Shown piece after piece: positions 19,427 through 48,535 of a DNA stretch of 59,072 nt. The notes beneath the pieces are model-generated. The model was not told where the DNA came from. It did no database searches and saw nothing but the letters and a program-made list of their open reading frames with translations. Numbering within the stretch: the first letter of the stretch is position 1; every line of letters begins with the position of its first letter. Both the position numbers and the translations under genes were made by a program. This stretch comes from an uncultured SAR86 cluster bacterium (GTDB lineage Bacteria > Pseudomonadota > Gammaproteobacteria > Magnimaribacterales > D2472), in contig CACPON010000004.1 of NCBI GenBank assembly GCA_902635645.1, forward strand, positions 1-59,072. Reading direction: 5' to 3'.

Positions 19427-19432
19427 TAAGTT

Positions 19433-20029: not shown

Positions 20030-20031
20030 CT

Positions 20032-21358: not shown

Positions 21359-21405
21359 TTAATTCTAATAAACTTATAGAACAAGAAACACTATCATAAA
21401 AATTT

Positions 21406-22245: not shown

Positions 22246-23105
22246 TGAAAATTGCTTCAATTGATATAGGCACAAATGCCATAAAGTCTAAAATTTTTAA
22301 GACCACTCCAACATCAATTGAATTCATAGAAGGAATAAGATCGCCTATAAGATTAGGCTCAAATGTCTTTAAAGAAGGCTATCTGAAAAAAAATAAATTA
22401 AATGAATTAGTAAAAACTTTAAAAAAATATCAAAATAATTTTAATAAAAATCATATAAAAATGTATGAAATTGTTGCTACTAGCGCCTTTAGAGATACTC
22501 AAAACTCAGAAGATGCTAGAAGATATGTTGAAAATAAAATTGAACACCCGATTAGAATAATCTCAGGATTAGAAGAAGCAAAATTAATTAGTCTTCATCC
22601 CAAAGCTCAATCAAAAAATAAAAATGTATTTGTAGATGTGGGCGGAGGAAGCACGGAAATCTATATATACCAAGATGATCAGCATATTATTCAATCATTC
22701 CAATTAGGGGCTGTAAGAGGAATGCTTAATAAAAATGATCTGAGTGAATGGAAAAGATTAAAGAATTGGTTGAAAAAACAAAATAAAGTAGAGTTTTTAG
22801 TTGGTCTGGGAGGCAATATTAGATCTTTTTTAAAAATCTATGAATCAAATAAGATGCCAACTAATGATCTTATTCAATTTGCCAATGAGCTAGGTGCATT
22901 AAGTCTTAATGAAAAAATAAAAAAATATAATCTAGCCAACGATAGAGCTGACGTTATAGATGAAGCATTAAAAATTTATATCGAAATTGCAAAACTTTTA
23001 AAAGTAAAAACTATCAAATCAACTAAATGGGGAGTTTCTGATTCAATTGCAGTAAAGATATTCCATGAGCTCTATTCAGATAAGATAACGATCTCAAGAA
23101 GCTAG
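22245..23105 (+). CDS. ppx: Exopolyphosphatase Ppx/GppA (short form)
   Basis: IDIGTNA, ATSAFR, IISGLEEA, DVGGGSTE, RADVI; TAATG overlap with ppk2. Confidence 0.92.
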   Translation: MKIASIDIGTNAIKSKIFKTTPTSIEFIEGIRSPIRLGSNVFKEGYLKKNKLNELVKTLKKYQNNFNKNHIKMYEIVATSAFRDTQNSEDARRYVENKIEHPIRIISGLEEAKLISLHPKAQSKNKNVFVDVGGGSTEIYIYQDDQHIIQSFQLGAVRGMLNKNDLSEWKRLKNWLKKQNKVEFLVGLGGNIRSFLKIYESNKMPTNDLIQFANELGALSLNEKIKKYNLANDRADVIDEALKIYIEIAKLLKVKTIKSTKWGVSDSIAVKIFHELYSDKITISRS

Positions 23106-23554
23106 TTAAATATCAATTCAGCGCTTACTTTATTGTTAAAGTTTTCATATTTGATATTAGTTATTTCTCTATTGGAACTATTAACTAGTTTTTCTGATAG
23201 AGTAACAGCATCACTGATATTAGTAGATAAGAAACTTATATAAATGGATGAGTTTTTCTCAGTTATATTGAGATCAGTTATATTATCCTGAAAACTGTTA
23301 TCGATAATAATTCTTTCAATATTCTCACTGCTAAGATTTTTTTTGTTATTGGAACTTTCAAAAAGTTTAACTTTATTGTAAACATATTCGTAGTCTGATT
23401 TAGCTTTTGCTAAGTTTATTGAGGACCTGGTATAACTCGAATAAACATTCATAAATGAAAAGTATAGAATAAGAAAAATAATTAAAACAAAGGAAATCAG
23501 AACTAGTTTCCTTTCTCTTTCTTGAAGATTTTTATATAAATTAATTATTTTCAT
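23102..23554 (-). CDS. gspM: T2SS protein GspM
   Basis: LQERERKLVL followed by a TM helix; last gene of the gsp cluster. Confidence 0.75.
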   Translation of the reverse strand: MKIINLYKNLQERERKLVLISFVLIIFLILYFSFMNVYSSYTRSSINLAKAKSDYEYVYNKVKLFESSNNKKNLSSENIERIIIDNSFQDNITDLNITEKNSSIYISFLSTNISDAVTLSEKLVNSSNREITNIKYENFNNKVSAELIFN

Positions 23555-24689
23555 ATTTTAGGTTTAATACTCCATCAATATTGCCATCTGTTGTTTCTAA
23601 GTTTTGTTCAGAAATTTTAATATTTAATTTTTCAGCCCCATTTTTTAATATATTAAATTGAAAAGAAGGCATCGAATTTATCTTTACTTTTGCAGAAGAG
23701 TTTTTTACATCAACTGTAATATCTGAAATATATTTTTCGCCATATTTAAAGAATAAATCTAAATTTGGAAGCTTGATATCAGGTGTATTATTCATAGGAA
23801 CGTTTTCTAAAATTTGATCTATTTGGTTCCTGGGAGCTACCACCCTATTAATATCCTTGCTTAATGAAGAAAAAATATTAAAAGTAGCATCAACAAATAG
23901 TTGAGTATCATGCTTGTTTTTATAAACAAGGTAATTTGGAGCAAGAATTATAAAAAATATGGCTAATAGAGAACTGATTAATTGTGCTCTAGAAAAACTC
24001 ATTTTCTTTATAAATAAATTTAAAGATAAGTTAATTTTAAAAAAATTAGGCAAAGATTCTACTTTTGTACTGTCAACATCCTGAAATACAAAATCTTTAT
24101 TCTCATTTGTAGACTTGAATTTATTATTTAAATCAATGTTAGAACTATAAATTATTGGCTCATAGTTTGGCTTATCATTGACAACAAGCTCTAGATATTG
24201 GTTTAGATTGTTACTGGAAATACTAAAACCGCATTTATTTTTGTACGCAAACATAAATTTTTCATCTATCTGAGTAATAGAATCAGAATCATTAAATGAA
24301 TTAATGAGATATTCCGGAGTAACATGTACTTTATAATTTAAATTGCTTAAATATTGATTTAATTCAGCTAAAAAACTTTTATTTACAACGTATCCTGCTG
24401 CTTCAGAAAGAAAATACTCATTATCAGATACAGAATCAATAAAATTTGAATCAACATCAGAAATAAAATTTGCAATATTTATTTGCTCAGATAAAGAGCT
24501 ATTTTGAATAAATTCGTATGAGGTAACCTCTGAAGATGGAATTAAAACTAACAGCAATTTAGCATCATCAATGTCATCAAGTTGTCTAAGTGAGTTAATC
24601 GTTTTTTTAGATTCATTTTTACTGGTTGCATTGTATAAATGAATTAAATCAAGGTTTGAGCTAAGAATATGTGCTATGTAGAAGTTCAT
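23541..24689 (-). CDS. gspL: T2SS protein GspL (divergent)
   Basis: Position between K and M; cytoplasmic domain (VLIPS..V), single TM, PRNQI periplasmic motif. Confidence 0.7.
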   Translation of the reverse strand: MNFYIAHILSSNLDLIHLYNATSKNESKKTINSLRQLDDIDDAKLLLVLIPSSEVTSYEFIQNSSLSEQINIANFISDVDSNFIDSVSDNEYFLSEAAGYVVNKSFLAELNQYLSNLNYKVHVTPEYLINSFNDSDSITQIDEKFMFAYKNKCGFSISSNNLNQYLELVVNDKPNYEPIIYSSNIDLNNKFKSTNENKDFVFQDVDSTKVESLPNFFKINLSLNLFIKKMSFSRAQLISSLLAIFFIILAPNYLVYKNKHDTQLFVDATFNIFSSLSKDINRVVAPRNQIDQILENVPMNNTPDIKLPNLDLFFKYGEKYISDITVDVKNSSAKVKINSMPSFQFNILKNGAEKLNIKISEQNLETTDGNIDGVLNLKYENN

Positions 24690-25655
24690 TTAGATACCAT
24701 TATAAATTCTTGAGGTAATATAGCTATTATTATTGACTCCATAGTAAATCTTACTAACAGAATCTGAAACATAATCCTCATATGAAAATGATGTGGTGAG
24801 CGTAAATTTTGAGGATGAAAACTCAATATGCATATTTCCATTATCTAATTCATAAGATGGAAATGCTCGCTTAAGATCATTAATATCCCTAAAGCCTTCC
24901 TCGGGAATATTATCCAATATGTATTGAGCATCAGTATATGGCATATTTGAAAACATTGAAGCTAATAGCATGTCATGACGCATTTCAAGTGTGTTTATAT
25001 TTACATTAAGTATATTGTCGGGAAAAACACAAAAATTATCCTCAAAAATGCTCCAACCTATCTTTCTTATAGCTGGAAGACCCTTTAGCTCAGCAAGTGC
25101 ATAAAACAATCTACTACCGGTGTACTCTTTTGGGTTGTTTAATGGTCCAGAATAGTAATAATCTTCTAAGCCATATGCTCTTGGATTAGAGTCACCATCA
25201 ATCCAATCAATAATTTGATCAATAGCTTCATCTGTTAAATTTAAATCGACTTCATTTAAAGTCATTAATTTTTTAAAAACTTCTATGTTCTTTTCATTTG
25301 GTTTAAATTCATTCTTAACTTTTTTGACAATAGAATTAATGTTAAAACAGTTTGAAGCGTCAGTAATTTTTCCTGTAACAATGCCATTATTTAATTCAAA
25401 AATAAAATCATTAAGAAATAATGAATTATTCTTTGCATGTATCTTTGAATTAAATCTAAGTTCGTTATCAATCTTTTTTTGTGCAAGAGATTCAATATTT
25501 CTAAAAATATTTAGAGATACTGTCTGGAATTCAGCATATTGAGCTCTTTTAAATGAAACAAAATAATTGTTTCCAATTAGAACTGCGACTGATGAAAGTA
25601 GTAAAACTATCATCAAAACAGATATTAAAACAACTCCTTTAGTTTTGTAATGCAT
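24690..25655 (-). CDS. gspK: T2SS minor pseudopilin GspK
   Basis: KG|VVLISVL cleavage site, CFNINS, IIDWIDGD, VNINT. Confidence 0.93.
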   Translation of the reverse strand: MHYKTKGVVLISVLMIVLLLSSVAVLIGNNYFVSFKRAQYAEFQTVSLNIFRNIESLAQKKIDNELRFNSKIHAKNNSLFLNDFIFELNNGIVTGKITDASNCFNINSIVKKVKNEFKPNEKNIEVFKKLMTLNEVDLNLTDEAIDQIIDWIDGDSNPRAYGLEDYYYSGPLNNPKEYTGSRLFYALAELKGLPAIRKIGWSIFEDNFCVFPDNILNVNINTLEMRHDMLLASMFSNMPYTDAQYILDNIPEEGFRDINDLKRAFPSYELDNGNMHIEFSSSKFTLTTSFSYEDYVSDSVSKIYYGVNNNSYITSRIYNGI

Positions 25656-26235
25656 AGGTTATGTTCGGATCAATGATCCATGAATACTCTTTATTTTTCT
25701 TTGAAAATTCAATTTTTATCAAAGTAGGAATTTTTTTTGAGGTTATAAGACTAATTGGCCACGATTCATGCCACGAGTTTTCATAGAAGAAAGAGAGTTG
25801 TAAATTTTCAATATCTTTAATTAATTCAATTTCTGTGAAATCGTCTTGACTATAAGGGTTTGAGGAAAAAAATTGTTTTCTGACCAACCTGTTATCAATT
25901 AATTCATAGTTAATTCTTTTAATTGGAGAAACGTCATTAGATATAGATTTAATATTTGAATTAAATATTAAACTATCTGAGTTAATTTGATTTATTAAAG
26001 TTCCATAGAGGTTATTACCGTAAAAATCTTTCATACGAGCATTTACGATTTGTCTAAAATCTCTTCTAATAATGGTTGAAGCTAAGCTTAATTCTTTAAT
26101 TGAATTTAGTTGTGCAGATGTTTCTTGTTCTGACTCTAAAGATGATTTTAAGATATTAGATGATACTATTGCTATCATTGAAAGAATAACCAGTGATACC
26201 AAAACTTCAATTATTGTAAAACCTTTATTATTCAT
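25639..26235 (-). CDS. gspJ: T2SS minor pseudopilin GspJ
   Basis: KG|FTIIEVL, RRDFRQ, W..SWP. Confidence 0.9.
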   Translation of the reverse strand: MNNKGFTIIEVLVSLVILSMIAIVSSNILKSSLESEQETSAQLNSIKELSLASTIIRRDFRQIVNARMKDFYGNNLYGTLINQINSDSLIFNSNIKSISNDVSPIKRINYELIDNRLVRKQFFSSNPYSQDDFTEIELIKDIENLQLSFFYENSWHESWPISLITSKKIPTLIKIEFSKKNKEYSWIIDPNITYALQN

Positions 26236-26614
26236 TAATAAGAAATCCTTCAGATTTATATAAATATTGATTAGAATTTTTTTCTTGAACTAATATTACA
26301 TATTTTATAAGTTCCTCAGAATCACTGGCTTCAAAGGTTTCTTCCCAACGCCATTCTTTACTACCCATCTTCATATATCCTGAGCGAGCATTGCCAATTG
26401 ATGGTTTTTCAATAGTGTGAATTAAAGCTATTCTGTTATTTGCAACTTCCTTAGAGTGATAATAATCATCTAAATTAAATATGGATATGCTTGTAGACAA
26501 AACTAAATTATATAAAACAAGTATTGAAGTGCTTAGAATAAATAAGGCTACAACTATCTCAATTAAGCTAAAGCCTTTTTTAGTAGTTGATAATTTGTGA
26601 TGTGACTTTTCCAT
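26228..26614 (-). CDS. gspI: T2SS minor pseudopilin GspI
   Basis: KG|FSLIEI, VANN, MGSKEWRW. Start chosen at the ATG at 26614. Confidence 0.88.
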   Translation of the reverse strand: MEKSHHKLSTTKKGFSLIEIVVALFILSTSILVLYNLVLSTSISIFNLDDYYHSKEVANNRIALIHTIEKPSIGNARSGYMKMGSKEWRWEETFEASDSEELIKYVILVQEKNSNQYLYKSEGFLINE

Positions 26615-27095
26615 TAGAGTTAATTTCAATTTTTTGAATATAATTATCAAAATATATATTTATATGGCCTCCAGAGTTTTCACCTGAAGGATAAAATAAT
26701 AGCAAAGGTGATTCATCGACGTCTAAATTAAAATCAATCTCAGAGCCATCAAATGACTTAAATGTTTTTTTAAAATTTGTCAGATTCTTCCAATTATTAG
26801 AATACGGATTTGCAACATCTGAAATGACTTTGTTGTTGTTATCAAGAGAGTAAGAAAATTGATTATTATTGTCAGCATGCCAACCTATGACATTACCAGT
26901 GATAATGCTTTCTTCAGATAGATAATGAAAAAATTTAGCAAAAGTTGATTGATTTTTTGAAATCGAAGTAGCTGAGCTGAAATTTAAAAAGATTAGTGAT
27001 GAGGCAATACCTATTACAATGAGAACAACAAGTATCTCTATAAGAGTAAACCCTCTTTTAAAATTATTGCATCCAATTACCGATGTCAGTGTCAT
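26580..27095 (-). CDS. gspH: T2SS minor pseudopilin GspH
   Basis: RG|FTLIEIL, FYPSGE. The start at 27095 overlaps the gspG 3' end (start uncertain). Confidence 0.85.
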   Translation of the reverse strand: MTLTSVIGCNNFKRGFTLIEILVVLIVIGIASSLIFLNFSSATSISKNQSTFAKFFHYLSEESIITGNVIGWHADNNNQFSYSLDNNNKVISDVANPYSNNWKNLTNFKKTFKSFDGSEIDFNLDVDESPLLLFYPSGENSGGHINIYFDNYIQKIEINSNGKVTSQIINY

Positions 27096-27492
27096 CTCCA
27101 GATCCGCCCTCCATTCCATCTGCACCTAAAGTGTATAAATCAAATTTTTTAGATTTTCTTGGTGGAAATTCATAAAGATATTCTCTTCCCCATGGATCTA
27201 GCGGTATAGAAGAAATATAACCATCCTCAGGAAACAAGTAAGGATTTTTTAAGCTACTATTTGGAATTATAAGAGCCTCTAATCCTTGAGAAGTAGATGG
27301 ATACTGAAGTTCATTAAATTTATACATTTCTAATGCTTTTTCAGTTTGAGCCATGTCTGCTTTAATTTTTTCTAAATTTGCTCTTTGGAAAACCGGGGAA
27401 ACATTAATAACAACAATAGTACCTAAAATACCAAGTATAACTAATACAGCCATTAGCTCTATTAAAGTAAAACCTTTTTTATATTTTTTCAT
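27064..27492 (-). CDS. gspG: T2SS major pseudopilin GspG
   Basis: KG|FTLIELM, YPSTSQGLEAL, DPWG, LGADG..GG.G.D.DIGNW. Confidence 0.97.
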   Translation of the reverse strand: MKKYKKGFTLIELMAVLVILGILGTIVVINVSPVFQRANLEKIKADMAQTEKALEMYKFNELQYPSTSQGLEALIIPNSSLKNPYLFPEDGYISSIPLDPWGREYLYEFPPRKSKKFDLYTLGADGMEGGSGDDTDIGNWMQ

Positions 27493-27495
27493 AAT

Positions 27496-28692
27496 TTATC
27501 CTAATGAGAGAGTGTTCATCTGCATTATAGGGATTAGTATAGCTAGAACAATTAACATAATAAAACCACCCATAAAAATTATAACTATAGGTTCCAGGAG
27601 CGATAAAAATACCGATCTTTTAGAGTCTATTTCATTTCTTAAAAAATCTGATGCCTTATAAAACATTCTTACTAAATTTCCTGACTTATATCCGCTAGAA
27701 ATTAATTGCATGAATATGTTTGGAAATACTTTTGTTTTATTTAATGAAATAATAAAGTCTTTGCCCTCAACCACATCATTTTTTGCATTCATCACAATAT
27801 AATGTAAGTATTTATTATTAAAAACTTTCGAAGACTCTTCTAAGGCAATATCTAAATTAGTTCCAGATTCCATAATTAATGCCATGGTGCTCGAAAACCT
27901 TTCAACTTCAGATATTAAGATAAAACCACCAATCAAGGGCAAATTTAAAAATTTTTTATGAGCGGAGATATGATTTTCAATATTTGCTACATGTTTTTTA
28001 TAACCGAATGTAATTAAAAAAATAAGTATGGCTAAAAATAAAAGAATTATAAAAATATTATTTGATAACCCTATTAATAAAGTTGTTATTAAAGGTAGTT
28101 CAGCACCTGCTTTCACAAACTGTCCAATAACTTGTGGTAATACAAAAGTTAACAAAGCAATTATCACTACTATAGAAAACCCTATTAAGATAATTGGATA
28201 AGTTAAAGCTGAAAAAACCTTTTGTCTAATAGATGCACTCTCTTCCAGGTAATCTGCTAACTTATTAAATATTAGATCAAGGCTACCTGATGAGTCTCCA
28301 GCAGTAACCAAAGATGAATATGTATTATCAAAAACATCTGGATACTTTTTCATTGACTGTCCAAGTCTTTTTCCTTGTATTACATCTTCTCGTAAATTAA
28401 GAATAATACTTATTAAATCCTTATTATTTAATTGATCTGCGGTTATTTTTAATGCATCTATAATAGATGTATTCGCCTCAAGGAGAGTAGCTAACTGCCT
28501 CGTCATCAATACAATTTCTTTGTTTTTTATCTTTGATCTAAATGAAGGTCTCCTAGTTGCAACAGTTACACTTACTGGAGTTAATTGAAGTTCTTTTATA
28601 TATCTTCTTGCTTCTCTTTCAGATGAAGCGCTCAGAATTCCCTTTTTCTTTGTGCCACTATTATTTAGAGCAATATAATTATAGGTTGGCAT
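27496..28692 (-). CDS. gspF: T2SS inner-membrane platform GspF
   Basis: TRQLATLL, ALTYP, LLEP..I..MGG..IVLAIL.PI. Confidence 0.95.
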   Translation of the reverse strand: MPTYNYIALNNSGTKKKGILSASSEREARRYIKELQLTPVSVTVATRRPSFRSKIKNKEIVLMTRQLATLLEANTSIIDALKITADQLNNKDLISIILNLREDVIQGKRLGQSMKKYPDVFDNTYSSLVTAGDSSGSLDLIFNKLADYLEESASIRQKVFSALTYPIILIGFSIVVIIALLTFVLPQVIGQFVKAGAELPLITTLLIGLSNNIFIILLFLAILIFLITFGYKKHVANIENHISAHKKFLNLPLIGGFILISEVERFSSTMALIMESGTNLDIALEESSKVFNNKYLHYIVMNAKNDVVEGKDFIISLNKTKVFPNIFMQLISSGYKSGNLVRMFYKASDFLRNEIDSKRSVFLSLLEPIVIIFMGGFIMLIVLAILIPIMQMNTLSLG

Positions 28693-30178
28693 CTTCTTTT
28701 AAATTTCCAACCCTAATAAGTTCTTCTGCTGAAGTAACACCATTTATTAAAAGACCTAACGAGGCCTGATCAATTGATTGATTGTCTTTAAAAACATAAT
28801 TTGAAATCTCATTTTCAGAGGAGTTATTATGAATCATATCTTTTAATACTTTATCTACTTGAATACATTCGGCGATAGCAATCCTTCCTTGATATCCAGT
28901 ATGTGTGCAGTCCTCACATCCTTTAGAGTTATATATTTTTTTACCAGCTGCTAAGTTAAACAGTTTAGCTATCTCATTAGTAGCATCTTCTTCATAACGA
29001 CAATTTAAACACAATCTTCTTACAAGTCTTTGAGAGATTATTGTTCTTAAACTTGAAGCTAAAAGAAAGGATTCAATACCCATATCTCGAAGCCTTGTGA
29101 TTGCAGCAATAGCACTATTAGTATGGACTGTAGAAAGCACTAGATGTCCGGTTAAACTAGCTTGAATACCAATTTGTGCAGTCTCAACATCTCTCATTTC
29201 ACCAATCATAACAACATCAGGGTCTTGTCTAAGAATAGCTCTCAATCCTTTAGCAAATGTATATCCAGTTTTTGAATTAACTTGAGTCTGGCCAACTCCT
29301 TCAAGTGTATATTCCACTGGATCTTCAACTGTTAGAATATTCTGGGAAGAGTCACTTAAATATCGGAGGCCTGCATATAAAGTTGTAGTTTTACCAGAAC
29401 CGGTTGGACCAGTGAATAAGATTATTCCCTCTGGATTTTTTAAAGAGGATTTATAATTTGATAATATTTGCTCTGGTAGACCTAGATCATCAATATTTAT
29501 TTGAGCTGACTGTTTATCTAACAACCTTAAAACTACCCTCTCACCATATGAAGAAGGTAAGGTTGAAACTCTGACATCAACACTTTTATCACCAAGAGAA
29601 AGTGAAACCCTACCATCTTGTGGCAATCTTCTCTCAGAAATATCTAATCCAGAAATAATTTTAATTCTAGAAATTAAAACTGAAGATATTTTACTATCTT
29701 GTGATAAAACTTCTCTTAGAATTCCATCAACCCTATATCTGATTATAATTTTATCTTCATATGGCTCAAAATGAATATCTGAGGCTCTATTTCTGATAGC
29801 CTGACTAATGACTCCATTAATTAATTTTATTATTGGGGTATCATCACCTCCACTTAATAAATCTTCAGTAGCAGTAATTGAACCTGCAAAAGATTGAAGA
29901 TCGAATTCGTCAGATAATTCTTCTGATATGTCATTAGATGTATCATCAGCAGAGAAGGTATTTGTTAAAAGTTCATTGAATTCTTCTGAACTACATTGTT
30001 TAAATGTAAATTCAGTTTTTAGGAACTTAAAAAGTTCATGATAAAGGTCTGGTGAAATTTTATTTGGGGAAATTACCTCGTATCCATCAGGATCCTTAGA
30101 TGCAATGATCTGATTTTCTTTAACAAAGTCATAGGGAAGAATATTAAATTTTTCTCTATCCATGGACGAAAAGGACAT
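28679..30178 (-). CDS. gspE: T2SS ATPase GspE
   Basis: ASDIHFEP, GPTGSGKTTT, LRQDPD, TGHLVLSTVH, two CxxC zinc motifs. Confidence 0.97.
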   Translation of the reverse strand: MSFSSMDREKFNILPYDFVKENQIIASKDPDGYEVISPNKISPDLYHELFKFLKTEFTFKQCSSEEFNELLTNTFSADDTSNDISEELSDEFDLQSFAGSITATEDLLSGGDDTPIIKLINGVISQAIRNRASDIHFEPYEDKIIIRYRVDGILREVLSQDSKISSVLISRIKIISGLDISERRLPQDGRVSLSLGDKSVDVRVSTLPSSYGERVVLRLLDKQSAQINIDDLGLPEQILSNYKSSLKNPEGIILFTGPTGSGKTTTLYAGLRYLSDSSQNILTVEDPVEYTLEGVGQTQVNSKTGYTFAKGLRAILRQDPDVVMIGEMRDVETAQIGIQASLTGHLVLSTVHTNSAIAAITRLRDMGIESFLLASSLRTIISQRLVRRLCLNCRYEEDATNEIAKLFNLAAGKKIYNSKGCEDCTHTGYQGRIAIAECIQVDKVLKDMIHNNSSENEISNYVFKDNQSIDQASLGLLINGVTSAEELIRVGNLKEDANL

Positions 30179-30184
30179 CGCTCA

Positions 30185-32044
30185 TTAATCTTTTGGATTG
30201 GTTAAGTCAATTAGTTGTTGAGATTCACCAGTTAACATTTGTCTAGCTTTTATATAATTGTATTTATCACTTGATGCGGACATGGCTGATTCTGCATCAG
30301 TTATTATAGTTGGTCTTAAGAAAACCATTAGGTTTTTCTTAACAGTAGTTGAGGAAGAGGACTGAAATAATCTTCCAAGAATAGGTACTGATCCAAGAAG
30401 TGGAACCTTAGAAACAGTATCTTGTTTGTCTTCATCAACAAGACCCCCAAGAACTATAATTTGATTGTTATCAACAAGTGCTGTTGTCTCAATTGCTCTT
30501 TTATTTGTAATAATATCTATACCACTCATGGGAACTCCAGCAACACCGGAAACCTCAATTTTAATTTGCATAACAACAGAACTACCTTCATTTATTTGAG
30601 GTGTTACTTCAAGTTTAATACCAACCTCTTGTCTAGATGTAGTTCTAAAAGGATTAGCATTATTAGTTCCCAAGCTTTCACCTGTAGTAATTGGAATTTC
30701 TTGACCAATTATAGAAGTAGCTAACTCATTATCCATTGCCATTAGTGATGGAGTTGCAAGTATGTTTGAATTAGAGTCTTGTGATATTGCATTAATAATT
30801 CCTACAAAATTATCCTTGCCAGGAGTTAAATCACCAAACCCAGCTATCAATCCTTGTGTATTAAGTAACGATGCTGAAGCCGTGGTTGATAAATTTACAT
30901 CAGTTTCATCAGCTGAAGAGCCAATAATTGTTAAGAGATCTGGTCCTGAGCCACCAAAACGAGTTACGCCAATTGGAACACTGTCTTTATCAGTTCCATT
31001 AAAAACAGTCTCAACACCAAGAGAACTGGCGGCAGTCTCTGATAATTCAACAATTATAGCTTCAACCAAGACCTGTGCCCTTCTTATATCAAGCTGAGAA
31101 ATAATATTCCTGATAGTTGCTAAATTAGCTTCTGCAGATGAAATAATTAAAGAATTAGTTTTTTCATGATGTGTTATAACTGTTTTAGCGCCATCATTGT
31201 CAGGTATGAATCCGCTTGAAACAGAATTAAGGATTGCAGCTATGTCAGCAGATTTAGCATATTTTAGGTAAACGACATCAATTGAGTCATCTGTTTTAAC
31301 ATCCTCATCTAGTGATTTGAGTGTTTCGTTAATATTATTAGTGACATATTCATTAGCTGAAACAATTACTGAATTAGATGGATTGAATGGTATAGCTATA
31401 AATTTGTTAATAGTAGGGTTATTTTGGGCTTTTAACTTATCAAGAATTCTGACTGCTTCAATGGAAGATAGGTTATTTAATTTTATAATTGATATTTTAG
31501 CAGCATTATTTTTATCTAAATCCTTTATAAGATCATTAATCCTTTGAACATTGCTAGATCTATCTACAATTAGAATAGAGTTTATTGAGGGGATGCTTGA
31601 TAAATGAGATTGTCTACCCGTTATAGGTTTTATCATTGGCAGAACCTCTTCAGTTGATCTGTTTATTAAAGGTATTACTAATGTTTGATAGTCTCCTGAT
31701 GAGGATACAGATGCGGTATTTTCATCTCTTGTAGCTTCATTCTCAGGAACAATTCTTACAAAACCATTTTCAGAAATTGCACTAAATCCATTTACTTGAA
31801 TTGTTCTTAGATATACATCCCAAACTTGTCTTCTATCTAAATTAGCATTTGAGTATATTGTTATTCTTCCTTTAACTCTTGGGTCTAAAATAATTGTTTT
31901 TTTTGAAAATTGAGCTATATCCTGTGTTACTTTTTTTATGTCTACATCCTCATAGTTAAGAATAAAAGATTCTTGTGTCAATAACACATTTACACTTCCA
32001 AAAAACAGAAATAAGCTCAAAATTATATTTTTAAAAAATTTCAT
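30185..32044 (-). CDS. gspD: T2SS secretin GspD
   Basis: ILDPRVKG, LDIRRAQVLVEA, GIKLEVTPQIN, KVPLLG..P.LG.LF. Start set at MKFF (32044), just after the gspC stop. Confidence 0.96.
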   Translation of the reverse strand: MKFFKNIILSLFLFFGSVNVLLTQESFILNYEDVDIKKVTQDIAQFSKKTIILDPRVKGRITIYSNANLDRRQVWDVYLRTIQVNGFSAISENGFVRIVPENEATRDENTASVSSSGDYQTLVIPLINRSTEEVLPMIKPITGRQSHLSSIPSINSILIVDRSSNVQRINDLIKDLDKNNAAKISIIKLNNLSSIEAVRILDKLKAQNNPTINKFIAIPFNPSNSVIVSANEYVTNNINETLKSLDEDVKTDDSIDVVYLKYAKSADIAAILNSVSSGFIPDNDGAKTVITHHEKTNSLIISSAEANLATIRNIISQLDIRRAQVLVEAIIVELSETAASSLGVETVFNGTDKDSVPIGVTRFGGSGPDLLTIIGSSADETDVNLSTTASASLLNTQGLIAGFGDLTPGKDNFVGIINAISQDSNSNILATPSLMAMDNELATSIIGQEIPITTGESLGTNNANPFRTTSRQEVGIKLEVTPQINEGSSVVMQIKIEVSGVAGVPMSGIDIITNKRAIETTALVDNNQIIVLGGLVDEDKQDTVSKVPLLGSVPILGRLFQSSSSTTVKKNLMVFLRPTIITDAESAMSASSDKYNYIKARQMLTGESQQLIDLTNPKD

Positions 32045-32045
32045 A

Positions 32046-32447
32046 TTATTTTTCTTCATCATTATCAATTCTATACATTTTATTACCATTACGAAATATA
32101 GCGCTATTTTGATTTACTTCAACCAGCTCAAATGTATTATCTAATAACTGACCCATTCCAACTAAATATTCTTTATTCGCCTTCTTTACAATAACAGATG
32201 AATTTTCTCCTCCAGACCGTATTCCTATTAACTTGTAATTAAAGTCAATCTCAATTAACTCATCTGCAACGTAATTTTCATCACTTATTAACGACTGTTC
32301 TGAAATAAATTCCTCAATAGTTATATTACCAATATCCTCTATGACTGGAGTGTTCTTATATGATTCGAACAATAAATATACAAAAAAAATAGATATCAAT
32401 GACAATAATATTAGAACAGTATTTTTAAGAAATTTAAAATTTAGCAT
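32046..32447 (-). CDS. gspC: Minimal GspC-like protein (TM + HR domain, no PDZ)
   Basis: First gene of the gsp cluster; TM helix then YKLIGIRSG..SSVIV...YLVG....L.EV, a GspC/PilP-type pattern. Confidence 0.7.
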   Translation of the reverse strand: MLNFKFLKNTVLILLSLISIFFVYLLFESYKNTPVIEDIGNITIEEFISEQSLISDENYVADELIEIDFNYKLIGIRSGGENSSVIVKKANKEYLVGMGQLLDNTFELVEVNQNSAIFRNGNKMYRIDNDEEK

Positions 32448-35155: not shown

Positions 35156-38110
35156 TTATTGGACGTCTATAGTTCCAGAGATTGTCCAGTTCTTATACCA
35201 CGTATCAGTTGCTCCTTTAACAGCACCAATGTAATCAGTCGTGTCAAAGAAACCATCTGCATTATAAGTAATAGGAATCGCAGTAACTGTAGCAGCAGTT
35301 TCTGCTGAACCATTTACGGGACCACTTAGTGTATTAACATATGTACCTCCACCAGAGTTGGCGCCGTAAAGATTATTGGTGCCCTCTCTAACAATTGATT
35401 CTATTTGAGCTACAGTAGCAAGGCCATCAGTTTTAATAAAACCGTTACACTGCATAGCAACAGAGTTCATTGAAAAATGAGGAGTAACTGCACCGTCTTG
35501 AGCAGTTTCAGCAAAAGTAGTTTCTATACAGTTTGTAGAATCATCTTTAACAACAGCCACGCCATTATAGTATTGACCAGACACACCTTCTTTTAATTTA
35601 AAGATTTCATCTTTACCACTACTTAAGAAAGTGAAGTTTGCAACAATAGGGTTAGACCTTGGCTCAGTTAAATATGCAACTGCTGCATCTGCATTAGTGT
35701 TATCTGATTCAACAACATGATCACCTACTCCATTTGATTGTTGAACAAGCACATATTGCATTCTTCCTTGATAACCCCAGTCAATATCGAGATTATCATC
35801 TCCGGCACCTGTACAAATTAAATGTTTCACATCAACTGTACCACCAAAGAACTCAACACAATCATCTTGGTTGTTATGAACTTGGATGTAATCAACAACT
35901 GTGCCATTACCGACTCCACCAAATGTAATTCCATTAAGCTCATTTCCTGGAAATACTTCGTATCCAGCATATTGAACCCTGACATATTTTAGTGATCCAC
36001 TACTGTCATTTGGGAGTTCGCCACCCATAGTATCGCCAGCTGAACCTTCAACTTCTTTTTCACATGGATCAACTCTTGTACCAGCTGATGTAGCTGAGCC
36101 TTGAGTTGAGAATGAACATTTGTTTATAGGCGCTTGACCTAATATTACCAATCCACCCCATAAACCTCTTGTGTTAACTATATCTGCTTCTCCAAGAATA
36201 TCTTGACGACCAGTCATAATAATTGGAGCCGAAGAAGTTCCAACAGCATGAATATCTGATCCTCTCATAACTACTAAATAGTCATTTCCTGATTCACCAA
36301 AAACTGTCACACCTGGTTCGATTGTTAATTTAGCACTAACACCGTCGGATTTTGTTCCATCTGCACCCATATCTTTTCCAATTGCAACTTTTCCATCTAA
36401 TTTATAGTAGTTTCCAGCTACAAGAGTTAAATCTGATGTAACTTCTCCAGATAAACTACAAACTTTTTTACCTAGAAGAACCTCAGATTCTAATGTACCT
36501 GCAGGACATTCAGGTGCTTCAAATAAACCAATGGTCCAGCCTGATGCCCAGTTATTTTCAAGATCTGATCCTGGAGAAAAAGCTCCAATGTAATCAGTTG
36601 CCGAGAACCATGTATCAACAATGTATCTTCCTTCTTTTGAACTATATGTTGGACATAGATCGGTTGTTGTTCCAGCAGCATGTGGACCTACTGCACACAT
36701 ACCTTGAACTTTATCACCATTAAAAGCAGAAACAACAGCTGACTCTGCATCACCTAAAAACATTCCAGATACTAAAGTATTTGTATCTAACACAAGATCA
36801 GTAGCTCTAGATGTAAGAGATGCTTCTAATTCTTCAACCGTAACAGCAGCTGTTTCACTATCTGGTTCTGAGTATTTAAATGGAGATGTGTCTCCAGCAG
36901 AATCCATAAAGATGCTGTGATGCTGAATTTTAGGAGTAAGGGCACCATCTTGAACAGTTTCTAAATTAGTTGCCTCAATTAAATTTTGAGAATTAACATT
37001 TACAACAACACCGTTAATGTATATTCCAGAAACACCTTCTTTGTACTTTAATGGTTCGTCTAATCCCTGAGAAATAAAAGTAAAGTTTGCTACCATTGGT
37101 CTTGATCTAGGTTCTGTTAAATAGCCTACTGAGGAATCTGAATTAGTGTTATCTGATTCTACTATGTGATCACCTACACCACTTGATTGCTTAACAACAA
37201 CAAATTGCATTTTACCTTGGTAACCCCAGTCAATATCTAAGTTGTCATCACCTGCACCTGTACAGATTAAATGTTTTACATTGACTGTCCCTCCAAAGAA
37301 CTCAACGCAGTCGTCTTGATTATTATGAACTTGTACATAATCAACTTCAGTTCCAGATCCTACAGCTCCAAATGTAATACCATTAAGTTCATTCCCTGGA
37401 AAAATTTCATATCCAGCATATTCAACTCTGACAAAATTTAATTTTCCAGAATCATCGTCTGGTGTGGCTCCACCCATTAAAGCATCAGAGCCTTCAACAA
37501 CTCTCTCACAAGCAGCTGTTCCTCTTACGTCATTTGAACACTTGTTAATTGGAGCTTTTCCAAGAATTACAATACCGCCCCATAAACCTCTTTCATTTTC
37601 ACTAACTGTGCCTTCTATAGCAGTATTATGAGTAAATCTAATTGGAGCTGAACGAGTACCGTTAGCAATAATTTTTGATCCTCTATTAACAACTAAATAA
37701 TCATTTGATGTTCTACCCATTATTACAACTCCAGCTGGAATAATTAATGTTCCAGATGCTCCACCAGCTTTGGTGCCATCACCTCCCATATCAATACCAA
37801 TATCAACTTTGCCAAGCATTCTATACATAACATCATCTGTTAATGTTAATTCACCAGTTATTGGGCCTTGAATTGCACATACGTTGTTACCCGCAACAGG
37901 TGAACCTACTTGTATAAATTCAGAATCAGGGCATGAACCTGTAAGTACATTACTGTTTGAACCACCGGTGCTACCACCACCTCCAGATGGATCTGATAAA
38001 GGACCCAACTCTCCAGGTGATGCTATAGATGTATCTCCTCCACCACCACATGCGGCAAGCAAAAATATAGATGTTAAAAATAATGAATTCTTAATTGATT
38101 TAGTGAACAT
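35156..38110 (-). CDS. 984-aa lipoprotein with two tandem beta-helix-like domains (ElpS-like)
   Basis: Lipobox LAAC, Gly/Ser linker, and two ~450-aa copies each with GLWGG.VILG.APINKC, YAGYE.FPGNELNGITFG.VG.GT, DDCVEFFGGTV and TDYIGA. GGAGG RBS. Confidence 0.85.
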   Translation of the reverse strand: MFTKSIKNSLFLTSIFLLAACGGGGDTSIASPGELGPLSDPSGGGGSTGGSNSNVLTGSCPDSEFIQVGSPVAGNNVCAIQGPITGELTLTDDVMYRMLGKVDIGIDMGGDGTKAGGASGTLIIPAGVVIMGRTSNDYLVVNRGSKIIANGTRSAPIRFTHNTAIEGTVSENERGLWGGIVILGKAPINKCSNDVRGTAACERVVEGSDALMGGATPDDDSGKLNFVRVEYAGYEIFPGNELNGITFGAVGSGTEVDYVQVHNNQDDCVEFFGGTVNVKHLICTGAGDDNLDIDWGYQGKMQFVVVKQSSGVGDHIVESDNTNSDSSVGYLTEPRSRPMVANFTFISQGLDEPLKYKEGVSGIYINGVVVNVNSQNLIEATNLETVQDGALTPKIQHHSIFMDSAGDTSPFKYSEPDSETAAVTVEELEASLTSRATDLVLDTNTLVSGMFLGDAESAVVSAFNGDKVQGMCAVGPHAAGTTTDLCPTYSSKEGRYIVDTWFSATDYIGAFSPGSDLENNWASGWTIGLFEAPECPAGTLESEVLLGKKVCSLSGEVTSDLTLVAGNYYKLDGKVAIGKDMGADGTKSDGVSAKLTIEPGVTVFGESGNDYLVVMRGSDIHAVGTSSAPIIMTGRQDILGEADIVNTRGLWGGLVILGQAPINKCSFSTQGSATSAGTRVDPCEKEVEGSAGDTMGGELPNDSSGSLKYVRVQYAGYEVFPGNELNGITFGGVGNGTVVDYIQVHNNQDDCVEFFGGTVDVKHLICTGAGDDNLDIDWGYQGRMQYVLVQQSNGVGDHVVESDNTNADAAVAYLTEPRSNPIVANFTFLSSGKDEIFKLKEGVSGQYYNGVAVVKDDSTNCIETTFAETAQDGAVTPHFSMNSVAMQCNGFIKTDGLATVAQIESIVREGTNNLYGANSGGGTYVNTLSGPVNGSAETAATVTAIPITYNADGFFDTTDYIGAVKGATDTWYKNWTISGTIDVQ
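35170..37933 (-). repeat. Intragenic tandem domain duplication (copy 1 ~37933-36520, copy 2 ~36508-35170)
   Basis: ~37220-37333 and ~35770-35883 encode the nearly identical peptide QVHNNQDDCVEFFGGTVxVKHLICTGAGDDNLDIDWGYQG with many third-position differences. Confidence 0.92.
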
Positions 38111-38179: not shown

Positions 38180-38238
38180 TGTTAATTAATGCTAATTTAT
38201 TGTTACAGTAAGTGGAGATTTTGTTACGTCTTCGTAAC
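38180..38238 (-). promoter_or_regulatory. Pho-box-like array upstream of the lipoprotein-TBDR-gsp operon
   Basis: Minus-strand hexamers GTTACG, GTAACA, GTAACA, TTAGCA, TTAACA at + positions 38233, 38222, 38201, 38190, 38180 (10-11 bp phasing). Confidence 0.65.
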
Positions 38239-38241: not shown

Positions 38242-40011
38242 TTACTTTGAAACTGGCAGTGAAAACCAAAACTCTGAACCTTTTTGTGGAGCATTCCTTA
38301 CACCTACGTCACCATTAAGACTATTAGCAAGATTTTTTACAATTGCTAAACCCAATCCGCTTCCTTTTTTTTCAGATGCTCTTGCTTCAGCCGTTCTAAA
38401 GAATCTATCAAATATCAAAGGCTTATCCTCATCTGAAATGCCTTTTCCGCTATCCGTTATTGTCACAACAACATTGTCTTCTTTTTTCTTAGTTTTGGTT
38501 GATATTTCAATTACTGAGTTTTCTTCACTATATTTAAAAGCATTATCTATTAAATTTGTAAGAATACGCTCTAAAGCTTTTTTATCAGCAAGAACTAATT
38601 GAGGTTTTTTTGGACAATTACATTTAATAGAAATATTTTTCTTCTTACCAAGGTGTTTAAGAGAATCAATTACTTGATCAATAGATTCTTTTAAATCAGT
38701 TTCCTCAATAATTAATTTTAGCTCGCCGTGCTCAATTCTTGAAAGATCTAGCAAGTCTGAAACCATTTCTGATAATCTTTCAGAGTTATGTAATATAGCT
38801 TTAGAAAAAACTTTTGCTTGTTTTTTATCGTCTAACGCTCCTTGAAGCAAAGTTTCTGAATTGGCTCTTATAACACTCACTGGAGTTCTAAGCTCATGGG
38901 AAACATTTGATATGAAATCTCGCCTCATTGAACTTAATTGTCTTAACTGGGTTATATCATGTATCACTAAAATAAACTCTTTAGTTGTTTTTGATTGATT
39001 CATCGAAGCTAGAACCCATTTAGTTGTTCTATCACTGTTCTCAATTTCAAATTCAATATCTGCAGATTTTGTTCTTTTAGTTTTTTTGTACAAGCTTTGG
39101 ATTGATTTAATACCTATGTCTTTTATTTGATTGCCAACAAGATCTTCTTTTGAAAGAATTTCTAAAAATTGCTCATTACAGTATGTAACTTCACCTGCTT
39201 TATCTGCAACCATAATACCTTCACCAAGATCATCAAGAACCAAACCAAACTGATCTCTTTGTTTAGCTAAGAGATTAATTTGAGATTTTAGATCTTCTGA
39301 AATTTGTGAAATACTTCTTGCAACGTTACCAAACTCATCAACCCTCTCTGTGGGTAAGGCTTTGATTGAACTTTTCTTCAATGAGCCACTTGCAAGATTG
39401 GATGCTGCGTTTGCTAATTCAGCTATACTCGAATAGGTGTAATTTGCTGCAACTCCACTAGCTATAGTTGCAACCAATAAAGCTACCATAGCAACGAGTA
39501 GAATTGATAAATCGAGACTTTCTATTGCCTGATCAAGATATGTATAGGGAACAGCAATTCTTATAACATTTGGTGATATCTCATTTTTATCTCTAATTGC
39601 AACATACAGCTGTTGTTGGTTTACTGAGCTGCTATATCTTGAGGACCAACCAAAACCGGTTTGCAGTGCCTCAATAAATTCTTCTCTATCGCTATGATTT
39701 TCCAATAAGTCGATTTGATTTTCATCAATATATGAATCACCTATTACCCTTCCATTATTTAAAATTAATGTAACTCTTGAGTTTGATGCATTTCCAAGTC
39801 TATCAGCAATGGAATCAGCATTATTATTTTCTTGAAGCGAGTCTACTTCATCAATATATTCAACTAGCAGTGATGCTTGCTTCTCCAATTGGTCTAAGAT
39901 TTGTTCTTCAAATGTGTTTGTTAAATCTCTCTCAGCAATAATATATGAAATAGTAATGCTTATTGATAGCGATAAGAATATTAATAAAAAGATGCGGGTT
40001 CTTATACCCAT
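38242..40011 (-). CDS. phoR: PhoR-like sensor histidine kinase (periplasmic domain, HAMP, PAS, HisKA, HATPase)
   Basis: RRDFISNVSHELRTP H-box, NLIDNAFKY, D.GKGI, GSGLGL; follows phoB inside a phosphorus island. Confidence 0.85.
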   Translation of the reverse strand: MGIRTRIFLLIFLSLSISITISYIIAERDLTNTFEEQILDQLEKQASLLVEYIDEVDSLQENNNADSIADRLGNASNSRVTLILNNGRVIGDSYIDENQIDLLENHSDREEFIEALQTGFGWSSRYSSSVNQQQLYVAIRDKNEISPNVIRIAVPYTYLDQAIESLDLSILLVAMVALLVATIASGVAANYTYSSIAELANAASNLASGSLKKSSIKALPTERVDEFGNVARSISQISEDLKSQINLLAKQRDQFGLVLDDLGEGIMVADKAGEVTYCNEQFLEILSKEDLVGNQIKDIGIKSIQSLYKKTKRTKSADIEFEIENSDRTTKWVLASMNQSKTTKEFILVIHDITQLRQLSSMRRDFISNVSHELRTPVSVIRANSETLLQGALDDKKQAKVFSKAILHNSERLSEMVSDLLDLSRIEHGELKLIIEETDLKESIDQVIDSLKHLGKKKNISIKCNCPKKPQLVLADKKALERILTNLIDNAFKYSEENSVIEISTKTKKKEDNVVVTITDSGKGISDEDKPLIFDRFFRTAEARASEKKGSGLGLAIVKNLANSLNGDVGVRNAPQKGSEFWFSLPVSK

Positions 40012-40014: not shown

Positions 40015-40707
40015 TTACTCAGGTGTTCTTGAAAATTTGTAACCCACACCTCTGATAGTTTGAACATATTTACCCATGACTCCAAGTTTTTCTCTGAGTC
40101 TTTTAATATGAGTATCAACTGTTCTGGTTGTTACATCAGCGCTATAACCCCAAACATCAGATAATAATTGGTCTCTTGATTGAACCCTTCCTCTTCGATC
40201 AACTAATTGGCGCAAAAGTTTAAATTCTAAGGCTGTTAATGTAATAGATTCATTATCAACAAATACCTCATGAGAATCTACATCAATTACTAAATCACCA
40301 AATTGCCTTTGTACTTCAAGATTTGCTGATTTTTGATCACCTCTTTTTAAAACCGCTTTTACTCTTAATATTAATTCTCTAACACTAAATGGCTTAGTAA
40401 CATAGTCATCAGCACCCAATTCAAAACCAACAACTTTATCAACTTCATCATCTTTAGCAGTAAGTATGATTATTGGAGTGGTCTTTTTTTCTGAATCTGA
40501 TTTCAACTCTCGGCATAAATCTAACCCCGAGCCGTCAGGTAACATCAGATCAAGCAAAATTAAAGAAAATTGATCAGCGTTTATATAGTTTTTACCCTCA
40601 GAAAGTGAGGAGGCACAAGCAACATCAAAGCCCTCTCTTGATAAATTGTATTCAAGAGTTTTTCTAATATCAGGCTCGTCTTCTATAAGTAATATTTTTT
40701 GCAACAT
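40015..40707 (-). CDS. phoB: PhoB/PhoP-like OmpR-family response regulator
   Basis: LLDLMLPD, GADDYVTKPFS, SRDQLLSDVWG, RTVDTHIKRLR, TIRGVGY. Confidence 0.85.
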   Translation of the reverse strand: MLQKILLIEDEPDIRKTLEYNLSREGFDVACASSLSEGKNYINADQFSLILLDLMLPDGSGLDLCRELKSDSEKKTTPIIILTAKDDEVDKVVGFELGADDYVTKPFSVRELILRVKAVLKRGDQKSANLEVQRQFGDLVIDVDSHEVFVDNESITLTALEFKLLRQLVDRRGRVQSRDQLLSDVWGYSADVTTRTVDTHIKRLREKLGVMGKYVQTIRGVGYKFSRTPE

Positions 40708-44400: not shown

Positions 44401-45207
44401 ATGGAATTGATTATTTTAGTTTTTCTAATCATGTTATTTCTTTCTATCGGAAGCTTAAGTTCTGTTGTTATACATAGATTAATTTTAATGGAATTTACTG
44501 ATACAAGGCTTAATTTATTTACTCCAAGATCTCACTGCCCTGAATGCAAAAAAAGTATTTCTTTAATTAATTTAATTCCGCTATTTGGTTTTTTAATTCA
44601 AAAAGGTAAATGCGTTAACTGTAAAGTAGCTATTTCATATAAATACCCACTTCATGAATTTATTCATCTAGTTTCGGGTCTATCAATCTATTTTTTATTT
44701 AATATAAATTTATTTTCAATTTTAATTTATATCTTATTTACAATTTTTTATATTCTTTTTGTATGTGACATAGAAAAATTTTATATACCCTTTTACTTAA
44801 ATTTATCAATCTCAATAATAGGTGTATCTGGTGCATATTATGGAAATCTATTTAATATAGATACTTTAAATTTATTAAACACATCACAATTTGAGCTTTC
44901 TTTATATGGCTTTATTGTTGGATATTCAATTTTATGGCTTATAAACTTTTTTTTTAAATTTTTAAAAAAACAAGATGGGATTGGCGGAGGCGATTTTTTA
45001 CTTCTAGGTGGTATAGGCTCTTTAGTTGGTCCAATTAGTTTAGCGCCAGTTATTTTTATAGGCTCATTAGCAACCTTATTTGTGGGGTTGATTGGTAAAT
45101 ATGATTTAAAAAAAGAATTACCATTAGGATCAGGATTCATAATTGGATTATTAATTTATTTATTAATAAAATTTTTTGAACTTTCTTTATTTGGATTAGT
45201 CTTATAG
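44401..45207 (+). CDS. pilD: Prepilin peptidase PilD/GspO (A24)
   Basis: PRSHCPEC, GKCVNC..IS..YP, Asp in VCDIE, GIGGGDF. Confidence 0.92.
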   Translation: MELIILVFLIMLFLSIGSLSSVVIHRLILMEFTDTRLNLFTPRSHCPECKKSISLINLIPLFGFLIQKGKCVNCKVAISYKYPLHEFIHLVSGLSIYFLFNINLFSILIYILFTIFYILFVCDIEKFYIPFYLNLSISIIGVSGAYYGNLFNIDTLNLLNTSQFELSLYGFIVGYSILWLINFFFKFLKKQDGIGGGDFLLLGGIGSLVGPISLAPVIFIGSLATLFVGLIGKYDLKKELPLGSGFIIGLLIYLLIKFFELSLFGLVL

Positions 45208-46091: not shown

Positions 46092-46166
46092 TGGAGCGGG
46101 TAGAGAGGATCGAACTCTCATCAAAAGGTTGGAAACCTCTTATAATAGCCATTATACGATACCCGC
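46092..46166 (-). tRNA. tRNA-Gly (TCC)
   Basis: GCGGGTA acceptor stem, anticodon loop TTTCCAA, GTTCGAT T-loop, encoded CCA; TATAAT upstream. Confidence 0.97.
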
Positions 46167-48475: not shown

Positions 48476-48535
48476 TGTTACATTTGTGTGACATTAGTTA
48501 CAATTATGTTACATAGTTGTCACATATATGTCAAA
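48476..48535. promoter_or_regulatory. Six-unit TGTNACA array (Pho-box-like)
   Basis: TGTTACA 48476, TGTGACA 48487, AGTTACA 48496, TGTTACA 48507, TGTCACA 48518, TGTCAAA 48529; spacings 11, 9, 11, 11, 11. Confidence 0.8.

Follow-up and report, generated by a model that had tools for sequence, protein, structure and literature searches.

A probable two-module member of the ElpS lipoprotein family encoded between phoBR-type genes and a TonB-dependent receptor gene in a SAR86 cluster bacterium

The window analyzed here is a stretch of 59,072 nucleotides (positions 1 to 59,072 of contig CACPON010000004.1, assembly GCA_902635645.1) from an uncultured SAR86 cluster bacterium. An open reading frame (ORF) at positions 35156..38110 on the minus strand, here referred to as elpS2, encodes a 984-amino acid (aa) lipoprotein that consists of two homologous modules of ~450 aa. 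The gene is preceded directly by a gene for a phoR-type sensor histidine kinase, and a gene for a TonB-dependent receptor (TBDR) starts 26 nt downstream of it on the same strand. The latter is followed by the operon for a type II secretion system (T2SS). Coordinates and the basis of each assignment are compiled in Table 1.

The 984-aa protein is almost certainly a two-module member of the ElpS family (PF28492, named Beta_helix_4 in Pfam 38.1 according to the Atlas), and not the representative of a new family. The PF28492.1 assignment is precomputed on all 120 listed homologues of the full-length query, whose candidates in a large protein collection include 1,009 proteins at E<=1e-3. An exhaustive HMMER search with module 2 retrieved 5,615 representatives of 50% identity clusters at E<=1e-3, 1,575 of which reach 1e-30, and the closest relatives carry SAR86 cluster source names. 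Module 2 aligned with a single-module Caulobacter sp. protein of 486 aa (P0375) at 42% identity and 98% coverage (E 8e-80). When P0375 was used as query, 77 loci from named genomes were obtained (Caulobacter, Phenylobacterium, Xanthomonas, Hyphomonas and many sphingomonads), and module 2 matched 77/77 of these by tblastn with 160-309 bits. Caulobacter, Xanthomonas, Hyphomonas and sphingomonads are also taxa named in the account of PMC2996285. Neither the full protein nor either module matched a family in NCBIfam or in the local copy of Pfam (E<=10), which does not hold the PF28492 model, and PDB sequences gave 0 matches at E<=10 either by phmmer or with a 71-sequence profile. Separately, the orthologue in a relative of the same genus (G013:C18:4287-7237) appears to be split in two pieces, the second match containing one in-frame TGA; this could be a pseudogene or an assembly error.

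The lipoprotein signal is evident from the lipobox LLAAC with Cys21, and residues 22-58 form a flexible tether that is disordered in the structural model. The sequence Cys-Gly-Gly-..-(I/V)-Ala-Ser-Pro-Gly-Glu following the lipidated cysteine is common to the 984-aa protein and to homologues of Caulobacter, Xanthomonas and Phenylobacterium (loci L002, L006, L012, L069). This motif may serve surface sorting or cleavage. Secreted ElpS of Caulobacter is reported to begin at residue 38 (PMC2996285).

An initial annotation, made from the letters of the window and a list of its ORFs, had proposed a lipoprotein with two beta-helix-like domains that share four nearly unchanged motifs. The division into two domains was confirmed, with boundaries corrected to residues ~59-534 and 535-984. 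BLASTP of residues 1-534 against 535-984 gave 245 identities over 472 positions (52%, E 1e-148), a similarity that chance does not explain. The motifs ELNGITFG (residues 241 and 724), HNNQDDCVEFFGG (262 and 745), GAGDDNLDIDWG (285 and 768) and DH(I/V)VESDNTN (314 and 797) are each present exactly twice, all four pairs being separated by the same offset of 483 residues. Each copy was said to contain several cysteines; there are 8 per module, six of them at equivalent positions.

Nei-Gojobori analysis of 420 aligned codons over the whole alignment of the modules yielded a proportion of synonymous differences (pS) of 0.61, a synonymous divergence (dS) of ~1.27 and a nonsynonymous divergence (dN) of 0.37, and synonymous sites are thus saturated (dS ~1.3). 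The same analysis of the core (aa 230-345) gave dN 0.084, dS ~1.47 and dN/dS ~0.06, against a dN of 0.45-0.60 for its flanks, in agreement with the earlier remark that synonymous sites and flanks have diverged. Within the core, third-position identity is 0.57, no identical nucleotide run is longer than 18, and different codons are used at 41 of the 97 identical core residues, which indicates an old duplication and gives no sign of recent gene conversion. The carboxylate core of both modules is under strong purifying selection, and in both respects the initial annotation, which had proposed an old duplication under such selection, was right.

The AlphaFold model of module 2, based on a 71-sequence alignment, has a mean predicted local distance difference test score (pLDDT) of 92.6 and a predicted template modeling score (pTM) of 0.93. 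Both modules are also confident in the full-length model (pLDDT 86.4, pTM 0.68), in which residues 1-53 are disordered (pLDDT <50). VIA-align comparison with 48,161 chains gave Z scores of 22.8-16.4 for fifty right-handed parallel beta-helix proteins from many unrelated families, including tailspike depolymerases, alginate epimerases/lyases, PL1/6/9, GH28, NosD and adhesins. Foldseek against the PDB returned nothing at E<=1e-3, the best weak row having E 0.016. Likeness to beta-helix carbohydrate-active enzymes and tailspikes (5w6p, 8ja4, 2pyg, 1ru4) concerns the fold only (250-314 aligned residues, root mean square deviation 2.8-4.6 Å), whereas sequence identity is 6-13% and there is no sequence-family match. 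The predicted right-handed beta-helix fold is certain, as the initial annotation had surmised, and no single structural family stands out.

Conservation was scored in 303 modules taken from the best 150 cluster representatives and 16 further proteins (P0001 and 15 from other searches). Seven carboxylates are near-invariant: D749 is kept in 301 modules, D750 in 303, E753 in 301, D771 in 302, D775 in 302 and E801 in 298, and position 772 is Asp in 282 and Glu in 21; N726 is kept in 295. In the model the conserved carboxylates occupy turn and strand-edge positions 22-26 residues apart, corresponding to four successive rungs, and both modules of the 984-aa protein retain every residue of the site. 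Accordingly, the Asp/Glu part of the Asp/Glu/His core described in the initial annotation stands and the His part does not, H745 being present in 160 and H798 in 32 of the 303 modules. A His-based Zn site was rejected on the basis of these counts. The modeled all-carboxylate stack suggests binding of a hard metal of the Ca2+ type, and we regard the proposed site chemistry as possible, at a confidence that stays below an even chance.

The initial annotation had further read the keeping of two copies by a streamlined genome as a hint of avidity or two substrates, naming tandem architecture as the family norm as an outcome that would speak against its view. An even draw of 401 genomes of the phylum contained 37 with the family. 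Excluding the present one, 12 of the 36 positive genomes carry a two-module ORF (907-1022 aa), 23 have single-module ORFs only and one has a fragmented gene; within the same class a two-module ORF occurs in 8/14 positive genomes. Among the best 150 cluster representatives, 97 have two modules, 22 three, 6 four, 1 five and 20 one, and 4 have partial matches only. Hence, 126/150 have 2-5 modules, in a list that favors multi-module proteins because scores add over modules. Two copies are thus not special to this streamlined genome, and since tandem forms are this common, tandem architecture as the family norm is half borne out.

A FastTree phylogeny of the 303 modules (those with coverage below 300 profile positions excluded) placed modules of the same protein together in 79/95 two-module, 15/20 three-module and 4/4 four-module proteins. 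Support was at least 0.9 in 74 of the 79 monophyletic pairs and median own-module identity was 68%, which indicates many duplications or concerted evolution. In the SAR86 lineage, three proteins that share 60-100% identity have their first modules in one clade and their second modules in the sister clade of it (support 1.0), indicating that the duplication predates the divergence of these proteins and that the copies have been separate since. Together, these results show that tandem forms are common in the ElpS family, and they appear to arise repeatedly. We also observed two proteins, P0285 (772 aa) and P0129 (1181 aa), that each have another kind of N-terminal region ahead of one ElpS module with 59-63% identity to module 2. 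Cadherin-like domains (PF00028, PF17963, PF19410, PF23592) are precomputed on P0285, and P0129 clusters with the SAR86 second modules in the tree.

The gene order around elpS2 is widely kept. An orthologue of the window's TBDR lies directly downstream on the same strand in 71/73 loci of ElpS homologues for which 1.5 kb or more of downstream DNA is available (all but L037 and L077), and it also follows in all 11 SAR86-type loci with downstream DNA. GspD is encoded downstream on the same strand in 35/63 homologous loci with at least 5.5 kb of such DNA, including all three Caulobacter loci; the T2SS neighbor is thus not universal. The order published for Caulobacter, cc0170 (ElpS) - cc0171 (TonB receptor) - gspC-N (Le Blastier et al. 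2010, PMC2996285), is matched in the window by lipoprotein - TBDR - gspC-like/D/E. The T2SS operon of the window contains a weak gspC-like gene (32046-32447), gspD, E, F and G, a pseudopilin gene, gspI, J and K and a weak gspM, and a 382-aa ORF occupies the gspL position. On a larger scale, proximity of such lipoproteins and TonB-dependent transporters (TBDT) has been described for 621 genera, including 171 of Proteobacteria, together with a proposed role of the lipoprotein as a lid (Price 2023, bioRxiv 10.1101/2023.03.17.533168).

Upstream, the best NCBIfam models for the phoR-type kinase are PnpS, WalK and PhoR, all under cut-off, and phoR also lies upstream of the lipoprotein gene in relatives L080-L082, L084, L085 and L090. 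The 131-nt spacer between phoR and elpS2 contains Pho-box-like half-sites spaced by 21, 11 and 10. This block is kept in relatives with 89-91% protein identity while the flanking sequence diverges, and more distant orthologues have clearer 11-bp GTAACA arrays. PhoB control of elpS2 is likely on these grounds, with PhoB presumed to bind the spacer. A stringent scan that required three or more GTAACA-like half-sites in 10-12-bp phase, with no more than one mismatch and one or more of them exact, found one array in the 888-kb genome, at 48496-48523, against 0-1 in shuffled genomes; a looser two-site pattern occurs at 20 places in the genome and is therefore not specific. The array found by the stringent scan belongs to a longer row of half-sites (Table 1) within the phosphorus island described below that, judged from its sequence, is probably a local Pho box with the same half-site as the spacer. 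It stops ~15 nt before the start of a 141-aa ORF without family match (48035-48460, minus strand), and its other neighbor is a photolyase-related gene (48603-50093, plus strand).

elpS2 moreover lies inside a phosphorus island, with phosphorus-related genes at positions 11012-23105 and 47007-48005 of the window. Besides the genes listed in Table 1 it holds genes for a PHO4-type transporter, PPK2 and Ppx/GppA and a weak PhoD-like gene. The link to phosphorus made in the initial annotation is strong, given this gene context and the literature on relatives (see below). Two adjacent ammonium transporter genes are located at 7110-8351 and 8512-9843 (plus strand), and a tRNA-Gly(TCC) gene lies inside the island at 46092-46166 (minus strand).

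Table 1. Positions of the features discussed, in coordinates of the window
Feature	Position	Strand	Basis or remark
GDPD	11012-11752		Phosphorus island
Beta-propeller phytase	15608-16684		Phosphorus island
Second TBDR, paired with phytase	16746-19280		TonB-Xanth-Caul 482 bits, above cut-off
T2SS operon	23102..32447	-	Pfam/NCBIfam matches
Cognate TBDR, 879 aa	32490..35129	-	Plug domain; TIGR01782 TonB-Xanth-Caul 162.6 bits, below cut-off
Beta-helix module 2, aa 535-984	35159..36508; conserved carboxylate core 35627-35998	-	AlphaFold, fold matches, carboxylate conservation
Beta-helix module 1, aa 59-534	36509..37936; conserved carboxylate core 37076-37447	-	Self-BLAST, codon analysis, model
Gly/Ser/Pro-rich tether, aa 22-58, with IASPGE motif	37937..38047	-	pLDDT <50 for residues 1-53; N-termini compared
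Signal peptide with lipobox LLAAC, Cys21	38048..38110	-	Read from translation; model helix at residues 9-19
Pho-box-like half-sites in the 131-nt phoR-elpS2 spacer	38180..38227	-	GTAACA 38222-38227 and 38201-38206, TTAGCA 38190-38195, TTAACA 38180-38185
phoR-type sensor histidine kinase, directly upstream of elpS2	38242..40011	-	HAMP/PAS/HisKA/HATPase_c
phoB-type response regulator	40015..40707	-	Response_reg and Trans_reg_C; best NCBIfam TIGR02154 PhoB 242.8 bits, below 296.2 cut-off
Prepilin peptidase, gspO/pilD type	44401..45207	+	Peptidase_A24 and A24_N_bact
Five to six TGT(A/G/C)ACA half-sites in exact 11-bp phase, probable Pho box	48476-48534	-	Between 48035-48460 (-) and 48603-50093 (+)

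At least 65% of the sampled words of elpS2 are present in 14 RNA-library runs from 7 studies. Contigs of 4/4 examined runs cover the lipoprotein gene and the TBDR gene, one of them (X2 record 12) spanning the junction. In X5 and X9, elpS2 and the TBDR gene are covered and phoR/phoB and most T2SS bins have little or no coverage; no conclusion was drawn from this, as all four runs consist of contigs and depth cannot rank genes.

Among published relatives, ElpS of Caulobacter (CC0170 / CCNA_00169) resembles the SAR86 protein in its lipobox, the G-rich tether with ASPGE, the PF28492 family, the lipoprotein-TBDR-T2SS order and the link to the Pho regulon. It differs in being a single module of ~50 kDa, whereas the SAR86 protein has two modules and 984 aa. 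In addition, phoB-phoR is located immediately upstream in SAR86, and the host is a streamlined marine gammaproteobacterium in which the protein is known from sequence. According to PMC2996285, Caulobacter ElpS is made only under starvation for inorganic phosphate (Pi), is palmitoylated and is degraded by proteinase K on intact cells, and its release depends on the T2SS and a protease; induction of the elpS promoter needs PhoB (PMC5172544). The phosphatase function considered in the initial annotation is unlikely, because purified and immunoprecipitated ElpS had no alkaline phosphatase activity in the assays described in PMC2996285. A phosphatase identity was rejected on this inactivity and on the lack of any match to a PhoA, PhoD, PhoX or PafA model in Pfam/NCBIfam.

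A second relative, Fjoh_0546 of Flavobacterium johnsoniae ("hypothetical lipoprotein FII"), is like the SAR86 protein a pectin-lyase-fold lipoprotein encoded beside a TBDT (Fjoh_0545) and adjacent to phoBR. The account of PMC8115612 places Fjoh_0545/0546 in a "PhoBR operon", gives a rise of ~log2 8-11 for the two under Pi depletion, and lists Fjoh_0546 as one of the most strongly Pi-depletion-induced proteins and as abundant in the exoproteome. Surface exposure or release is thus documented for Caulobacter ElpS (PMC2996285) and, by exoproteomics, for Fjoh_0546 (PMC8115612). The pair differs in its Bacteroidota host and, judging from the locus tags, in the order TBDT-then-lipoprotein. Its homology to the SAR86 protein rests on a comparison of BT4056, Fjoh_0546 and ElpS by Price (2023), in which BT4056 of Bacteroides thetaiotaomicron shares 40% identity with Fjoh_0546 and is a distant relative of ElpS (bioRxiv 10.1101/2023.03.17.533168). 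BT4056/BT4055 offers a further parallel, an outward-facing lipoprotein partner of a non-SusC TBDT and putative lid, although BT4056 is a single module and the lid role is a prediction (Price 2023). The SAR86 protein is also akin in concept to SusD-type lipoproteins, surface lipoproteins paired with a TonB-dependent transporter. SusD is all-helical and TPR-like. The SAR86 protein, by contrast, is a beta-helix without SusD Pfam match; it may still work like a lid.

We consider it reasonably probable that the 984-aa protein is under Pho control, is tethered to the cell surface and, as the partner of the adjacent TonB-dependent transporter, captures a phosphorus-containing ligand at two sites; the ligand would probably be metal-bridged because the site is acidic. 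A lipid anchor at Cys21 and the ~35-residue flexible tether would hold the protein on the outside of the outer membrane. Each of its two beta-helix modules would present seven carboxylates (DD..E / DD..D / E) on four successive rungs, and the lipoprotein would act as the surface substrate-capture partner, or lid, of the TBDR encoded 26 nt downstream. PhoB-PhoR, encoded directly upstream, would turn the pair on at low phosphate, resulting in uptake of the ligand, which would probably be held via bound Ca2+-type metal ions. The neighboring T2SS may free the protein from the surface, as in Caulobacter. As the cores of the two modules are identical, two same-site modules would serve to bind a polymeric or particulate ligand with avidity, and would not confer two specificities, the other option of the initial annotation.

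The family and fold of the protein, the order of the genes around it, the purifying selection on it and the occurrence of its gene in RNA libraries were shown in the present analysis. Pi-starvation induction, PhoB dependence, surface exposure and T2SS-dependent release are taken from the literature on relatives and would apply to SAR86 by analogy. The metal site, the kind of ligand, direct contact between lipoprotein and transporter and the avidity effect are inferred.

Several observations weigh against this interpretation. No ligand is known for any ElpS-family member, and an acidic site repels phosphate unless it is metal-bridged, the metal site of the SAR86 protein being presumed. The alkaline phosphatase results on purified and immunoprecipitated ElpS mentioned above count here as well, as does the report that deletion of elpS left secreted phosphatase activity unchanged (PMC2996285). 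The tie to ElpS itself (CC0170) relies on a congeneric Caulobacter homologue and on synteny. AlphaFold-Multimer gave "few high-confidence contacts" for BT4055-BT4056 (Price 2023, bioRxiv 10.1101/2023.03.17.533168), so that contact with the transporter is a prediction even in relatives. The stringent genome-wide scan did not call the elpS2 promoter, which has two exact half-sites only. Contigs from RNA libraries do not prove transcription. Finally, 9/24 other genomes of the genus, many of them incomplete, carry the gene, and such patchy presence indicates an accessory gene.

The alternative that survives best, which we nevertheless rate as unlikely, is that the modules act as a beta-helix enzyme that depends on Ca2+, be it a lyase, hydrolase or esterase. 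Its substrate would be a polymer at the cell surface that is anionic and perhaps phosphorylated (phosphoglycan, teichoic-acid-like material, acidic exopolysaccharide or nucleic acid), and the cleaved fragments would enter via the TBDR as in a polysaccharide-utilization locus. The nearest structures by VIA-align are almost all carbohydrate-active beta-helix enzymes (tailspikes, alginate epimerases/lyases, PL1/PL6/PL9, GH28), and the near-absolute conservation of seven carboxylates in 303 modules resembles catalysis more than plain binding. Invariant carboxylates on adjacent rungs are how beta-helix enzymes hold Ca2+ or build a catalytic site. Lidbury et al. 2021 (PMC8115612) moreover describe such exoproteins as weakly similar to pectate lyases and polygalacturonases. 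However, the flat VIA-align list, with Z scores of 22.8-16.4 over 50 unrelated families, shows the fold only, and searches of local Pfam (E<=10), of the PDB by phmmer and profile and with Foldseek (E<=1e-3) gave no match to a carbohydrate-active enzyme or other family. The candidate general base, R616, is conserved in just 237/303 modules, and no activity is reported for any family member.

We give a rather small chance to the proposal of Le Blastier et al. that ElpS activates, scaffolds or helps to release a separate secreted phosphatase, whose products the TBDR would take up. Caulobacter supernatants showed more alkaline phosphatase activity when elpS was overexpressed, although ElpS is itself inactive, and a T2SS-dependent protease releases ElpS, as reported in PMC2996285; a PhoD-like gene and a phytase gene are present in the same island. 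Against this stand the lack of effect of the elpS deletion on phosphatase activity in the same report and the tight lipoprotein-TBDR pairing (71/73 loci here; 621 genera in Price 2023), which the proposal leaves unexplained. In addition, no particular phosphatase consistently co-occurs, on which no systematic test was made.

Capture of a metal cation (Ca2+, Fe3+ or similar) as cofactor for PhoX/PhoD-type phosphatases, with the TBDR importing metal and not phosphorus, is in our opinion very improbable. Its appeal is that the invariant site consists only of carboxylates and Asn, as is typical of hard-metal binding, and that the import of metal complexes is a classical function of TonB-dependent receptors. 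Sea water, however, is rich in Ca2+ and Mg2+. Furthermore, elpS was reported to be unaffected by FeSO4 and not induced in iron-depleted medium (PMC2996285), and the Flavobacterium loci to be tightly repressed under Fe and N limitation (PMC8115612). An equally small probability, disfavoring the idea, attaches to a surface adhesin or structural beta-helix without direct uptake role and with incidental phoBR/TBDR adjacency: the adhesins PfbA and Vag8 passenger are among the structural matches, one source names homologues "trimeric autotransporter adhesin" and the cadherin-like-domain fusion variant P0285 exists, but pairing with one TBDR lineage is kept across phyla, the specific carboxylate cluster is invariant and Pho-dependent induction is documented in two distant relatives (PMC2996285, PMC5172544, PMC8115612).

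Beyond the role as capture partner of the transporter in SAR86, we tentatively suggest, as a more speculative idea, that ElpS modules in general capture a polyanionic phosphorus source through bridging metals and are possibly enzymes acting on it. Together with the TBDR they would constitute a widespread route of phosphorus uptake across the outer membrane, distinct from PstS and porins. The source may be polyphosphate, nucleic acid, a phosphorylated glycan or colloidal metal-phosphate, and the recurrent, independent multiplication of the module to two, three and four copies would reflect selection for avidity toward such a polymeric or particulate ligand. If true, the system could act as a sink of quantitative relevance for these phosphorus pools in a streamlined bacterium that is abundant in the ocean.

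The family has a Pfam entry of its own and has been the subject of experiments in Caulobacter and Flavobacterium, and the SAR86 locus adds no new principle to the published work. What stays of interest is the ligand of a very large family that is almost always paired with its own TBDR and ranks among the top Pi-starvation-induced surface proteins in two model bacteria. The position of elpS2 behind phoBR, its presence in marine RNA libraries and the genome size of ~0.9-1.3 Mb suggest that the module is useful in the phosphorus-poor surface ocean, and identification of the ElpS-family ligand would define a new bacterial route of phosphorus acquisition.

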